From positions 1-17,432 of the IMG/VR virus record IMGVR_UViG_3300011888_000045: a stretch of 17,432 nucleotides of DNA; one strand, 5' to 3'. Under the pieces are notes generated by a model. That model was not told the DNA's origin. It ran no database searches and was given only the letters and a program-made list of their open reading frames with translations. Within the stretch, counting starts at the first letter, position 1, and each line of letters begins with the position of its first letter. Shown piece after piece: positions 7,987 through 11,924 of this stretch. The position numbers and the translations under genes were made by a program. Source of the stretch: a virus (taxonomy: Duplodnaviria; Heunggongvirae; Uroviricota; Caudoviricetes).

Positions 7987-8571
7987 CTATTCGATAATGG
8001 GTACTGTTGGCCATTCAATATCCGGTGCAGTTGTTGTATTAACACGGTTCAGCAACACCCGATACTTCTTCCAGGCTTCCAGCAACGAGGTTTCTTCCTC
8101 CGTTGCAATTTCCAGATCTGCAGCATCCTGAAGCGGCGCAATATGCTCACTGGCTACCTGCATCAGGCTGTTTTTTGTTTCTTCCGCCTCCCGGATCCGG
8201 AACAGTTTTTCTGCTTCTGCATCTTTCACCCAGGCTGTGCCGTTCCACTTCTGATATTTCCCTCCCGGCGACAACCAGGTAACATTTTCCGGTAATGAGC
8301 CGAGTTCAGAAATAAATAACGCGTCGCCGGAAGCCACGTCATAAACCGTTTTACCCCGATGATCTTCAACGAGATGCCACGATGCCTCATCACTGTTGAA
8401 AACAGCCACAAAGCCAGCCGGAATATCTGGCGGTGCAATATCGGTACTGTTTGCTGGCAGACCTGTATGAGGCGGAATATATGCGTCACCTTCACCAATA
8501 AATTCATTAGTTCCGGCCAGCAGATTATAAATTTTTATGGTCCGTGGTTGTTCACTCATTCTGAATGCCAT
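7987..8571 (-). CDS. tfa: Tail fiber assembly protein Tfa (lambda Tfa-like), 194 aa
   Basis: [74 protein letters not shown]... is nearly identical to phage lambda Tfa as I recall it. Start overlaps the stf stop (TAATG). Confidence 0.92.
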
Positions 8572-11500
8572 TATGCAAGCCTCACAATATAGTTAAATGC
8601 GATGTTTTTGACGGTGTTTTCCGCGTTACCAGCAGCGTTAACGGTGATGGTGTGTCCATGTGAGCCAATCGCAACCGAGTGCGTATGAGCACCAATACCG
8701 ACAGTATGTGCGTGAGCACCTGCAGATGCAGCTGTGCCGCTGACACTATGAGTGTGCGCTCCTGCAGCACTTGTATTCACACTGGCCGCAGACACTACCT
8801 TATGTACTGACCCATTTTGTGACCACTGGCTGACTGCTGATGCGCCTGTGACACTATGAGTATGGTTTCCGGCACTTGCGGCTGTACCGCTCACACTGTG
8901 CGTATGCGCCCCGATGTTATTCGTGGATTTAGTGCCGTAATCAAACGACGATGTGGTTTTCGTACCCAAATCCGTACTGGATGCGCTGGCGCTGTGGGTG
9001 TGCGATTTAATGCCGTCCTGTTCCTGAGACAATACGGCCCGACCACTGGCAGGTTTGCCCTTAATCGTCCAGCCACGCATATCAGGGATCACGCCTGACG
9101 GATAAGCGGCTGCAAGTTTCGGGTAAGCAGATTTGTCAAAAGTCTGCCCCTGCATCAGGGCATAACCAGACGGAACGGTATCTGATGGCCACGGGATTGG
9201 TGCGCCGACTGGGTAGCTTTCTGGTGGAAGATTTTTCGAGGTATAAACTTCTGCCCAGTCTTCCTCAAAACCATAGCCATCTCTTGAGGAACGGTAGAAC
9301 AGACCTCCATTTCTGTAATGTGCCTTCATCTGCAAGGTCCGGCAACTTCCGACTCCGGTATAGAAGTTAACCAGAATATAGCTGTCGCCAGAGCGGGTGA
9401 CATTGTAAGCGCCTGATTCGGCATTCCATGGAACGCCCCCATCCGCATCGGCATACGTATCCGTTGCCCTTCTGGCAAAAGCAGCCACATGCGCGGCGGT
9501 TAAAGTAATATCTTTGGAACCATCAAACTCAACACCAGAAACCAGTCTTGGCGTTTGCAGCTTTGTTGCTGTTAATGCATTACCGTTCAGACTTGCGGAC
9601 AGTTTGGTTCCAATAACCAGTTCGCCGGTTGCGTTATCAATAGCAAACGGTCTTAATGTATTCCAGCCACCATAAACATCACCTTGATTGGTAAGCAGCA
9701 GGTAAGTTTTAGCGCCATCATTACGCCATAATGCACCATACTCCCCACCTATCATTCGAATCTGATTACCACCACGCGCTACAATTTCGTCTGTGGCAAA
9801 AAGTTTTTTGCACGACAAGTTATCGTTAACGATTAACGAATGAGACTCATAAAAACCACGCCCACTCTTAAAATCAAGGATAACGTCCGCCGCGATACAT
9901 TCAGTCGCTGGATTTGTTGCCCCAAACTTATAGGTCGTATCATTAACAACGAGATCAGCACCAGGTGCGGATATTGACAGGCCATCTTCGATAAACGCAA
10001 AAACAGGGAAAGCAGCGCCATCAACATAGAACACAGAGCGCAAATCATCGCCCTTATTACTCATCATTATTGAGTGGATGGCTCGTTCATTGTTTTGATA
10101 TTGCCAGAACATTCCATAAGCATAACGCCCCCTGTCAGTCCAGCCACCAGGCATAACAAATCCGTTAAACTCGCAGTTATTCATCGGATCGCCTGCGGTT
10201 CGCGTTGCCGTGGTGATAATGACCCTTGATGCCAGTTCGCTTACTGAGCCAGCAGAACGCATAACAACAACAGGGTAATATTTTCCAGATGTTGCACCTG
10301 CAGGAGCGTTAACCCGCACATAACGCATACCACGCTTATCAGCAAAGTCTGTTTTACTGACCGCGTTAATGTTGTTCAGGAAGCGTCCCTTATCGGGTAT
10401 ATCAGCGCCGTTCTGGTCTTTCTGCAGACGTTTCTCAGCATTGTCATTGGCTGCTTTTACTGCCTTTGGCGTTGCCGCCAGCGTTTCAGACGTGCTGTTG
10501 GTCGCACTGCTGAGCTGTACTATCCCCTTTTTCGTCGTGCTCGCATCCTCAAGCGCCACGGCGGATGCAATATCCTCTGCCCGTTTTGCTGCTGTCTCGG
10601 CGCGCGTTGCCGCGGATTCCGCCGTACTTTTGCTCTGAGCTGCCGCCGTCGCACTACCAGCTGCCTCTGTCGCCTTCGTGGATGCCGTCGTGGCGCTGCC
10701 TTTCGCTGCTGATGCCTGTCTGCTCGCCTCATCTTTTGAAGCAGACGCAGATGATGCCGATGACGCCGCCGAACTGGCGGACGATGCAGCTGCCATTTTT
10801 GAGGATTCTGCACTGGTTTCCGAGGCTTTCGCGTTCGTTTCGGATGTCATCGCTGCGGATGCAGACCTCGCTGCTGCGCTGGCCTGTTCAGCGGCTTCGC
10901 CAGCCTTCGTTGTGGCTGTTGAAGCGGATGATGCGGCGCTTTCTGCCGATTTTCCGGCTGCGGTGGCACTGACTGAGGCCTGCCCGGCACTTGTTGACGC
11001 GGCACTGGCAGACGACGCAGCCGCTGTTTTTGAGCCTGCCTCAGCTGAGGCGCTCTGTCCCGCTGCCGTCTCAGAAGACCTGGCGTTCGTCTCGGACGTT
11101 TTTGCCGCCTTCGCGGAATTTCCTGCCGCTGTTGCCGAGGAGGCTGCACTACTGGCGCTCGAGGCTGCGCTCGTTTCTGATGATTTTGCCGCCTCTTTTG
11201 AAGCCGACGCATCCCGTGCTGAAGTGGCTGCTTCTGACGCTTTCGTGGTCGCGGTGGATGCAGAAGTGGCGGCTGATTGTTCTGACGCTGCCGCATTCGT
11301 TTCTGACGTTTTCGCCGCACCGGCACTGGTGGCCGCCGCGCTTTTTGAGGACTCTGCAGCGGCAGCACTTTTTGAGGCTTCAGTGGCCTTTGTTGATGCC
11401 GTTCCTGCGCTGGAAGACGCTGACTGAGCCGACGACGCGGCCTGTCCGGCTGACGTGCTGGCTGCGCGTGCTGAGTCCGCAGCATCAGCCGCATGGGTTG

Positions 11501-11924
11501 CCGCCTCACGGGCTGATGTGCTGGCATCACTGGCTGACTTCTTCGCGGCTGCCGTGTTCTGTGCCACCGCGGACGCGTTACGCGCCACCTCTTCCACCAT
11601 CAGTTCAAAACGGCGCAGTGCCTCCGGACGGGCATCATCCTCCGTCATGGCACCGAGAAAATCATTCAGCGTACCGGGTTGAGAATCTTCATACACGGTG
11701 ATGGTCCCGGCATGTGACGGCGGGAATCCTTCCACCAACAGAATAACGCTGTACTGACCGTACTCAACGTCCATGCTGTAACGCCCGGCTTCATCCGGAT
11801 TTTCTGAGGCCAGCGTGTTCACCACCACAGTGGTACTGTTACGTTTTGCTTTCAGCTGGATTGTGCAGTTCTGTACCGGTTTTCCTGTGCCGTCTTTCAG
11901 TACACCTGAAATCTTTACTGCCAT
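8571..11924 (-). CDS. stf: Side tail fiber protein Stf (lambda Stf / Rac StfR-like), about 1117 aa from the ATG at 11924 (1119 aa from the GTG at 11930)
   Basis: N-terminus [26 protein letters not shown] and C-terminus ...[31 protein letters not shown] match lambda Stf. Contains a long Ala/Ser/Thr-rich low-complexity region and C-terminal His-rich repeats. A GGGG SD precedes the ATG at 11924. Confidence 0.9.

Follow-up and report, generated by a model that had tools for sequence, protein, structure and literature searches.

The side tail fibre gene stfR described here very probably encodes the mosaic, presumably homotrimeric StfR fibre of a Rac-type prophage, composed of an StfN collar, a heptad rod, a junction, a distal module and a gp37-type needle. 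The gene lies in a window of 17,432 nucleotides, i.e., the whole stretch of viral DNA that was analysed. Its open reading frame is a real and intact orthologue of StfR of the K-12 Rac prophage. The two proteins are collinear over their full length, with 1073/1120 identities (96%) and one 3-aa gap. Moreover, the uspF-ompN DNA flanking the prophage is 99.3% identical to that of K-12 and therefore marks the same chromosomal locus. A preliminary description of the window had placed a lambda-like side tail fibre at 8571-11924 and compared it to Rac StfR. The coordinates proved exact, the frame of 1117 aa is intact, and the likeness to StfR is one of orthology. With a GTG start, the minus-strand frame would span 8571..11930; the annotated ATG is at 11924. 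The gene stfR is ordinary and well known, with annotated copies across thousands of E. coli genomes. Annotated stfR genes in many E. coli share 99.9% DNA identity with this frame, and 1231/5426 complete E. coli genomes contain a copy with a query coverage of 80% or more.

The surroundings of the gene are those of a lambdoid tail region (Table 1). The order J - lom - stf - tfa was found in the open reading frames, the Pfam matches and the annotation of the collinear strain H10, and it is identical in lambda. The tfa gene is directly downstream of stf, with the ATG of tfa overlapping the stop codon of stf. It shares 93% DNA identity with lambda tfa and is named tfaR in the L001 annotation. The window holds the right arm of the prophage only. 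Within it, no invertible segment or Cin/Pin-type invertase was found beside this stfR copy; K-12 and phage 2H10 have pinR. The gene very probably belongs to a Rac-type lambdoid prophage at the ompN-uspF site of E. coli, with the minus-strand order K-I-J-lom-stf-tfa as in lambda.

Table 1 Features of stfR and its neighbours in the window
Feature	Residues (aa)	Position	Strand	Basis
stfR, side tail fibre gene	1117 aa; stop codon 8571-8573	8571..11924	minus	ORF list, translation
StfN collar domain anchoring fibre to tail	1-94	11643..11924	minus	Pfam and PDB matches
Proximal shaft, 49 uninterrupted heptads	117-459	10548..11576	minus	Heptad table, column composition, periodicity
Part of shaft absent from lambda Stf (105 aa, 15 heptads)	304-408	10701..11015	minus	Global shaft alignment
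Conserved junction motif, last lambda-shared stretch before module swap	460-499	10428..10547	minus	orf-401 alignment
Central module, mosaic, no lambda counterpart	500-903	9216..10427	minus	tblastn, PHROG tail-fibre families
Beta-rich knob domain	520-705	9810..10367	minus	
T4 gp34-like proximal long tail fibre segment (Gp34_trimer)	706-786	9567..9809	minus	Pfam, PDB, tblastn
Mu/P1/P7 gpS- and FelixO1-like tail fibre segment	813-903	9216..9488	minus	PDB, tblastn
T4 gp37-type collar and needle receptor-binding domain	904-1117	8574..9215	minus	PDB 2xgf, Pfam, HxH
Hypervariable tip cassette	1003-1060	8745..8918	minus	Variability profile of 120 close homologues
tfa (tfaR-like), tail fibre assembly chaperone	194 aa	7987..8571	minus	Caudo_TAP PF02413, E=7.5e-43; PHROG 105
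lom, upstream neighbour as in lambda		11989..12588	minus	Pfam Ail_Lom, E=3e-118; L001 annotation
J, central tail fibre / tip attachment protein		12655..16053	minus	Pfam GpJ domains; L001 annotation
Six overlapping ORFs in other frames or on + strand, composition artefacts	89-249 aa	10369..11701	.	ORF list

For comparison, the 774-aa lambda Stf was rebuilt from orf-401 and the orf-314 frame. The protein is not collinear with it. Residues 1-286 are 87% identical to lambda Stf 1-286, and aa 904-1117 are 68% identical to lambda 530-774, so the N- and C-terminal parts are lambda-like, as had been described. The excess over lambda Stf, put at about 345 aa in the preliminary description, is 343 aa by alignment. 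It combines a shaft longer by 105 aa, a central stretch of 404 aa which substitutes for lambda 395-529 (135 residues, the hinge and the distal coiled coil), and a tip shorter by 31 aa. The longer Ala/Ser/Thr shaft and the extra central module were hence rightly recognised. Over its first ~170 residues, the shaft shares ~87% identity with the lambda rod, and DNA homology to lambda breaks between stf aa 303 and 405.

The fibre begins with the collar of lambda-type side tail fibres. Pfam PF08400 (phage_tail_N) spans aa 1-134 (E=1e-71), and the lambda tail fibre protein structures PDB 9e7m/9mgh match aa 1-94 (E=6e-52). In Ur-lambda, gpStfN was defined as residues 1-91 (PMC12617516). The proximal heptad rod typical of such fibres follows. 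Its heptads have the consensus A-[ST]-A-A-[AS]-[TS]-S, with Ala in 46/49 at column 4 and in 35/49 at column 1, and Ser in 37/49 at column 7. The phase is constant along the entire shaft, and the 7-residue periodicity of the protein reaches z=41 against residue shuffles. Ala, Ser and Thr make up 73% of aa 117-465, and the shaft DNA has 62% G+C. The shaft, previously called low-complexity, consists of 49 degenerate heptads of a putative coiled coil written in varied codons, matching the trimeric coiled coil of Ur-lambda Stf. By the same analogy, aa 117-459 may form a parallel three-stranded coiled coil of ~52 nm, the length being obtained from the canonical rise of ~0.148 nm per residue. No higher-order protein repeat was detected in the shaft against heptad-order shuffles, where no lag stands out (max z=2.0) and 35% of the shuffles reach the observed maximum.

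[quoted passage not shown] The following central module (aa 500-903) has no match in lambda, in DNA or protein. In tblastn against phages, its matches fall into three separate sub-modules. The knob is probably a beta-sandwich. For the gp34-like segment, Pfam PF21446 is found at aa 663-762 (E=3e-27), the gp34 structures PDB 4uxe/5nxf/9x3r match aa 706-777, and the identity to T4-like gp34 is 40-50%. For the gpS-like segment, Mu S (PDB 8ju3) matches aa 813-907 (E=3e-39), and the identity to FelixO1 and P7 S is 47-49%. The AF2 monomer of aa 500-903 was unusable (pLDDT 41), with nothing in Foldseek against PDB at E<=0.001, and the model of aa 520-710 was not confident (pLDDT 65).

The C-terminal part carries several marks of a gp37-type needle: a collar, repeated HxH motifs, a conserved C-terminal strand and an adjacent downstream chaperone gene of the Tfa/gp38 class. 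The T4 gp37 tip (PDB 2xgf) aligns end to end over 216 residues with aa 902-1117 (E=1e-87). Pfam Collar PF07484 (aa 907-954) and Phage_fiber PF03335 were found in the tip, as were seven HxH motifs at 975, 1007, 1021, 1057, 1071, 1080 and 1089. By homology to 2XGF, these motifs may bind iron, with Fe2+ held by histidines of three chains. Among the 120 close homologues, identity drops to 34-55% solely in aa 1003-1060, where 15 distinct tip cassettes of 58-75 aa sit between conserved HxH frames. The cassette in the window is distinct from its counterparts in lambda, T4 and K-12 StfR. In the alignment it corresponds to the LPS/OmpC-binding tip subdomain 932-959 of T4 gp37 (PMC6957217), and it is likely the receptor-contact surface. 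Judging from the alignments, specificity varies by replacement of this cassette and by exchange of the distal module through conserved flanks. Recombination between lambda and Rac stfR has been measured (PMC3945230).

Another explanation of fibre diversity is that the shaft is a DNA repeat array and a frequent substrate of homologous recombination which alters both fibre length and specificity. Indeed, the preliminary description had called the shaft DNA highly repetitive. This was not borne out at the DNA level, and the periodicity resides in the protein. Tandem Repeats Finder reported merely two arrays of 25-30 nt, and self-BLASTN of the 1029-nt shaft gave 3 weak HSPs (24-37 nt, 81-88%). No exact direct repeat in the shaft exceeds 11 nt, a length also reached in synonymous-codon shuffles (mean 12.8). 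High-identity head-to-tail repeats, as in a contingency-type locus, were thus not found in the shaft by Tandem Repeats Finder, exact-repeat search or self-BLASTN, and a repeat array was rejected for want of any meaningful tandem repeat. Efficient RecA-dependent exchange needs roughly 25 nt of perfect identity, and the 11-nt repeat falls well below this need.

Nevertheless, weak direct repeats of 15-40 nt do occur in the shaft, spaced by multiples of 21 nt, and natural variants have their junctions on them. For instance, the variant P0002 carries a tandem duplication of aa 189-293 (+105 aa) with its junction at the D3 copies (11017-11039 / 11332-11354), and P0011 a deletion of 28 aa with its junction at the D2 copies (11083-11110 / 11167-11194). 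When the family is clustered at 50% identity, the shortest shaft has 27 aa and the longest 349 aa. Recombination at shaft repeats, as first suggested, is therefore real in that its end-points lie on weak 21-nt-phased repeats, but it is rare. The comparison across relatives did reveal length polymorphism, yet shaft length is identical in 91/120 close homologue clusters, and the variants (+105, -28, +28, +7, -7, +40 and -3 aa) are mostly single records. The common protein lengths of 1117, 1120, 1160 and 1176 aa differ by the junction-motif duplication and the tip cassettes. As for specificity, the proposed change through shaft repeats did not hold, as the sequence variability is concentrated in the tip cassette and in distal module exchange. 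We consider the repeat-array explanation unlikely.

Most differences between the shaft length classes of the family amount to whole heptads. Fixed boundaries of modules inside the rod were considered and rejected, since break-points are not shared between length classes and alignments are ambiguous at low identity. A search for StfN proteins gave 660 hits, of which 150 were retrieved. Most of what a scan for StfN in species-representative genomes added were E. coli relatives, lambda DNA contaminating unrelated assemblies, and divergent proteins from Gilliamella/Budvicia; the latter have no C-terminal anchor motif, and the shaft-length sample excludes them. It is a speculative and rather doubtful idea that rod length in the StfN family evolves in whole-heptad quanta, with exact 15-heptad (105-aa) steps seen repeatedly and at more than one position, and that the rod is a selected 'ruler'. 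Such steps separate lambda from StfR, StfR from the 1238-aa variant P0002, and the shaft classes of 27/132/237 and 96/201 aa. Lag 105 is not enriched in the shaft against heptad-order shuffles, so an internal 105-aa repeat does not explain them. If the idea were true, the rod would fix how far the receptor-binding module reaches, or its rotational register, with respect to the central fibre J, and would not be a neutral low-complexity spacer.

It could also be argued that stfR, as with much of K-12 Rac, is left over from a cryptic prophage, is decaying and yields no functional fibre. K-12 Rac is defective, with lomR interrupted by IS5 and tail genes lost, and Qin-like prophages hold truncated stf remnants fused to an Nu1 fragment. 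In the window, however, the 1117-codon frame is intact, as are J, lom and tfa beside it, and the collinear strain H10 holds the gene set from tape-measure to tfa. Synonymous diversity and the preserved heptad phase argue for purifying selection. Moreover, the plaque-forming Escherichia phage 2H10 (Glaedevirus) encodes an Stf of equal length (1117 aa), 97% identical and with an identical tip, and its relatives mEp332, ev099 and PhiR34_1 carry the StfR-type fibre as well. A remnant is very unlikely, and from these sequences the stfR allele of the window is likely functional.

The shaft also generates long open reading frames in other frames, which the preliminary description correctly took to be spurious. 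Three of the five alternative frames contain just 1-3 stops across the shaft. Stop-free stretches of 250, 262 and 218 codons compare with 238+/-19, 281+/-74 and 123+/-41 in synonymous-codon shuffles, i.e., equally long open stretches arise in the shuffles. The openness is due to GCN/TCN/ACN codons at 62% G+C, and these frames are a by-product of composition, not genes. That at least one of them is a real gene, such as the + strand frame 10678-11427 (249 aa), is extremely improbable and was rejected on the shuffle test: lambda RefSeq does annotate orf206b in the corresponding region, on the strand opposite orf-401, and one antisense frame is somewhat more open than its shuffles (218 against 123+/-41 codons; p~0.03, uncorrected for five frames), but this p value fails correction, none of the remaining four frames exceeds its shuffles in openness, and the ORFs have no known protein family or function.

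Returning to the mosaic StfR fibre, the following mode of action can be proposed. The StfN collar (aa 1-94) would dock on the tail at the gpV/gpM junction. The 49-heptad rod, with Ala at core positions, would exceed the lambda rod by ~15 nm, and the junction motif would link it to the distal module. This 404-aa module would be built from pieces shared with myophages, namely the beta-sandwich knob, the gp34-like trimerisation segment and the Mu/P1 gpS-like segment. It would be followed by the gp37-type collar and needle, with the hypervariable cassette as receptor-binding surface, and the downstream Tfa would be the chaperone folding the needle. If StfR acts like its analogues in Ur-lambda and T4, it may be the first to touch, reversibly, an outer-membrane porin or LPS, and may speed adsorption.

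A residue-level map of the StfR modules with window coordinates is useful for the engineering of chimeric lambda fibres. For annotators, it should be kept in mind that the Ala/Ser heptad region at 62% G+C yields long false ORFs, lambda orf206b being of the same kind, and draws misnomers, e.g., 'short-chain fatty acid transporter'. Host-range variation is to be sought in the 58-75-aa tip cassette between the HxH frames; rod length changes are rare and mostly in heptad units.

Among the known systems, the closest is K-12 Rac StfR (b1372, NP_415890.2, 1120 aa), which has the same domain order, the same uspF-ompN site and tfaR next to it. Here the tip cassette is another one, shorter by 3 aa, and aa 1003-1060 account for the sole indel and for the majority of the 47 differences. 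Unlike K-12 Rac, the prophage here retains J and an intact lom, and sitABCD and a GGDEF gene occupy the place of K-12 pinR-ynaE-ynaM. In the Stf of 2H10, the central module and the tip are identical to those of the window, and the 29 substitutions are mostly in the shaft. Downstream of the 2H10 gene, as in K-12 Rac, come a 191-aa Tfa and an invertase; the window copy precedes a 194-aa Tfa.

The architecture of lambda Stf, with collar, coiled coil, hinge and gp37-like tip, is already known and was published in 2025. Ur-lambda Stf was modelled by cryo-EM/cryo-ET/AF3, with a coiled coil at residues 102-393 and a hinge from 394; it is a homotrimer with four fibres per virion and a dodecameric collar anchor, which is known for Ur-lambda only (PMC12617516). 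The 774-aa protein (orf-401 and orf-314 in lambda PaPa) shares with StfR the StfN collar, the Ala/Ser heptad coiled coil, the junction motif, the gp37-like HxH needle, the Tfa chaperone and the lom-stf-tfa order. The DNA identity to lambda is 87% from the lom 3' end to stf aa 303 and 93% across the final 49 stf codons and the entire tfa. In contrast to Ur-lambda, the rod here is 15 heptads longer, an unrelated 404-aa module stands in place of the hinge and distal coiled coil, the tip cassette is different, and there are seven HxH motifs instead of eight.

Mu/P1-P7 gpS and T4 gp34 share merely short modules with StfR. The two matches of Mu gpS are local, as are those of P1-P7 gpS, and T4 gp34 residues 1036-1106 correspond to aa 706-777. 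The T4 gp37 needle (2XGF chain residues 27-242) keeps the HxH motifs in register and ends in the same C-terminal strand, but the sequence of its tip subdomain differs and the remainder of StfR is unrelated to gp37. T4 gp37 belongs to the long tail fibre of a myophage, whereas StfR is the side fibre of a siphophage.

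The minus strand of the window corresponds to the right arm of a lambdoid prophage (see table), and the coordinates and reading frame of stfR in the preliminary description were exact. The E. coli H10 chromosome is collinear with the entire window at 99%, and its annotation runs from tape measure, M, L, K, I, J and lom to stfR and then tfaR. Of 5426 complete E. coli genomes, 5192 gave a megablast match to the stfR ORF and 1231 covered at least 80% of it; the best matches were 99.9% identical and annotated as stfR. Alignment with K-12 Rac StfR (b1372, 1120 aa) showed 96% protein identity with a single 3-residue gap, and the uspF-ompN flanking DNA of K-12 is 99.3% identical to that of the window. 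By both identities, the gene is the StfR orthologue at the Rac locus, in line with the extended lambda-type fibre of the StfR kind proposed earlier. The gene is already known and annotated.

K-12 homology resumes at window 2465. Between this point and tfa, at 2466-7986, the window carries sitABCD and a MASE4-GGDEF diguanylate cyclase gene (only 27% G+C), whereas K-12 Rac has pinR-ynaE-ynaM. These genes look like cargo in the prophage right arm. A 40-nt segment downstream of sitD (6287-6326) may be left over from the original prophage arm: it is 90% identical to positions 10728-10767 of the K-12 Rac locus (L003), which lie about 190-230 nt inward from the right end of Rac.

Features of the window and segments of the 1117-residue StfR protein (nt, window position; aa, StfR residue)
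Feature	Coordinates	Strand	Match or remark
ompN, uspF	left part of window	+	
sitABCD	2672-6110 nt (left part)	+	
MASE4-GGDEF gene	6747-7913 nt (left part)	+	
tfa ORF, 194 codons	7987-8571 nt	-	Pfam Caudo_TAP; ATG overlaps preceding stop codon
stfR ORF, 1117 codons	8571-11924 nt	-	
lom	11989-12588 nt	-	Pfam Ail/Lom
J	12655-16053 nt	-	Pfam gpJ domains
gpI	16114-16761 nt	-	
gpK	16659-17432 nt	-	runs off window end
StfR N-terminal part	aa 1-286		lambda 1-286, 87% identity
StfR extra shaft	aa 304-408 (about 105 aa)		no lambda counterpart
StfR resumed homology	aa 405-499		lambda up to residue 394
StfR central module	aa 500-903		in place of lambda 395-529; no lambda match, protein or DNA
within central module	aa ~530-705		28-37% like fibres of phages tonnikala, F61 and rV5-like phages
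within central module	aa 706-786		T4 gp34; Pfam Gp34_trimer; PDB 4uxe and others
within central module	aa 813-903		Mu/P1/P7 gpS and FelixO1 fibres
StfR C-terminal part	aa 904-1117		lambda 530-774, 68% identity; lambda 31 aa longer

The lambda PaPa gene is split into orf-401 and orf-314, and the 774-aa lambda Stf was rebuilt from orf-401 up to ...DETNRK and an upstream extension of the orf-314 frame. Pairwise alignment revealed lambda-like ends, as described, and two segments lacking a lambda counterpart. The length excess is +105 +269 -31 = +343 aa, close to the 345 aa first estimated. DNA homology to lambda comes in four blocks. The first, at 87%, begins in the 3' end of lom and extends through stf aa 303; aa 405-490 follow at 80% and aa 907-999 at 87%, and the last block, at 93%, spans aa 1069 to the end and all of tfa, the downstream gene for a Tfa-type chaperone. 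The homology preceding the central module ends at about aa 490-500, equivalent to lambda 394, the point at which the hinge begins in the Ur-lambda model (PMC12617516).

The shaft had been described as long, Ala/Ser/Thr-rich and of low complexity. The composition was confirmed (73% over aa 117-465). Counted in sevens from residue 117, the region forms 49 uninterrupted heptads of constant phase, with Ala in column 4 in 46 of 49, Ala in column 1 in 35 (otherwise Glu or Lys) and Ser in column 7 in 37. Identity is 0.41 at lags that are multiples of 7 versus 0.20 at other lags, and lies 41 standard deviations above residue shuffles. Residues 102-393 of Ur-lambda Stf have been modelled as a trimeric coiled coil (PMC12617516), and a PDB search gave a weak match of StfR to the N-terminal region of the T7 gp17 fibre. 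The region is therefore read as a coiled-coil rod with a small-residue core, in agreement with the Ur-lambda model. At the canonical rise of about 0.148 nm per residue, the rod would measure about 52 nm, versus about 36 nm in lambda. No lag stood out after shuffling of the heptad order, and no higher-order repeat was found in the shaft.

The shaft DNA is not repetitive in the usual sense, contrary to what had been proposed. Its longest exact direct repeat is 11 nt in 1029 nt, and 96% of synonymous-codon shuffles equal or exceed this length. TRF detected only two arrays of 25-30 nt, while a repeat-family search returned units of 15-40 nt, 60-88% identical and spaced at multiples of 21 nt. Self-BLASTN did yield three HSPs, but of just 24-37 nt. 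Codon choice across the heptads is thus varied.

Between 10369 and 11701, other frames or the plus strand hold six ORFs of 89-249 aa. Within the shaft, three of the five alternative frames have only 1-3 stops; elsewhere in the gene, each of the alternative frames has 17-50. Exchanging synonymous codons among identical residues reproduced the open stretches (250 observed vs 238+/-19 shuffled, 262 vs 281+/-74, 76 vs 84+/-25, 65 vs 48+/-12), with one marginal frame (218 vs 123+/-41, p about 0.03 before correction). These ORFs result from the GCN/TCN/ACN codons at 62% G+C and are indeed spurious. An overlapping gene at 10678-11427 was rejected, as the shuffle test attributes its openness to composition. 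A stop-poor ORF of the same kind, orf206b, is still annotated antisense to the orf-401 shaft in the lambda reference (lambda 20147-20767, minus; 5148-5768 of the lambda record L002).

Shaft length equals that of the window in 91 of 120 close homologue clusters. Among close homologues, P0002 has aa 189-293, exactly 105 aa, duplicated in tandem, and P0011 has lost 28 aa. Others show +7 aa at two positions, -7, +28 derived from a re-used upstream block, a tandem duplication of 40 aa that is out of phase, or a recurrent -3 in an SSA micro-repeat near aa 387; single records have -1, -2, -8 and -12 aa. The P0002 junctions fall on copies of the weak repeat family D3, 315 nt apart, and those of P0011 on copies of family D2, 84 nt apart. 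Rare exchange or slippage events between the degenerate repeats thus do take place, and the suggested role of the repeats in length change stands only to this extent. As no exact match exceeds 11 nt, classical homologous recombination would be a less plausible source of these variants than microhomology-mediated events.

In the wider family, 36 of the 50%-identity cluster representatives with StfN had both anchors. Shaft classes of 27, 34, 125, 132, 146, 237, 244 (lambda) and 349 (window) are congruent modulo 7; those of 96, 201 and 299 are offset by one residue and differ among themselves by 105 and 98, and a single class, 141, is out of register. Rod length thus appears to evolve mostly by whole heptads; as the classes lack phylogenetic independence, no p-value is given. 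Steps of exactly 105 aa (15 heptads) appear repeatedly, at different places in the shaft: between lambda and StfR, between StfR and P0002, and within the classes 27/132/237 and 96/201 (window 10701-11015; homologues P0002, P0246, P0334 and P0257). Lag analysis found no 105-aa periodicity within the StfR shaft. The only points that are mildly new are the perfect register of all 49 heptads, the quantisation of the length classes by heptads and these recurrent steps.

A 662-aa 'tail fiber protein', P0182 (loci L051-L054, gene 4001-5989), was listed in 167 collection blocks, with 24 contigs examined and 87 contigs in another listing. Its GTG start is the equivalent of Val457, at the shaft end, and the gene directly follows a Nu1 fragment in Qin-like defective prophages, which indicates that a deletion joined nu1 to the end of the stf shaft.

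The extra central region was correctly noted and is a mosaic; variants exist with other pieces between ...ATKLQT..I.GV.FDGS.DI.L motifs. A globular knob is plausible. Monomer AF2 models were poor for aa 500-903 (pLDDT 41) and for aa 520-710 (pLDDT 65, beta-sandwich fold), and structure searches returned generic jelly-roll matches only.

The shaft repeats had also been expected to change specificity. In the alignment of 120 homologues, however, identity to the window's sequence stays at 89% or more in every 20-residue stretch outside aa 1001-1060, where it falls to 34-55%. The homologues carry 15 tip cassettes of 58-75 aa between conserved HxH frames, and the tip segment is also where K-12 StfR differs. 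The hypervariable segment aligns with subdomain 932-959 of the T4 gp37 tip, which has LPS/OmpC-binding residues (PMC6957217). Specificity would accordingly be placed by sequence comparison in the tip cassette, elsewhere than in the shaft repeats. Whole distal modules are exchanged between phages via conserved flanks; lambda x Rac stfR recombinants were measured at about 2e-6, mainly in a Red-beta-dependent manner (PMC3945230).

Most close homologues (1160- and 1176-aa classes; P0022, P0109) carry a 44-aa tandem duplication of the junction unit, ending in LAATPKAVK; longer tip cassettes also contribute to the length of these two common classes. The corresponding window site is 10428-10547, and the window, K-12 and phage 2H10 are without the duplication.

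A lambda-like stf, 93% identical, was found in about 20 assemblies of unrelated bacteria, including Kitasatospora, Shewanella, Oceanobacillus, Bradyrhizobium and Enterococcus (loci L007-L023, L027, L029, L045, L047 and L049). The contigs, either about 48.5 kb long or very small, have about 1x coverage and almost certainly represent lambda DNA contamination of sequencing libraries. In nr, the name 'short-chain fatty acid transporter' is attached to many StfR homologues (P0010, P0013, P0016 and others), and a few are called 'terminase large subunit' or 'phage portal protein'. Such names are propagated annotation errors.

Rather than debris, StfR is most likely a functional side fibre, given the same allele in plaque-forming lambdoid phages. 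This reading applies to stfR, and the window covers only the right arm of the prophage. The C-terminal domain (aa 902-1117) aligns over its whole length with the tip structure of T4 gp37 (2XGF, E=1e-87), with seven HxH motifs versus eight in lambda. The stf genes of mEp332, ev099 and PhiR34_1 are similar to the window allele, and the Stf of the plaque-forming lambdoid phage 2H10, also 1117 aa long, shows 97% identity and bears an identical tip.
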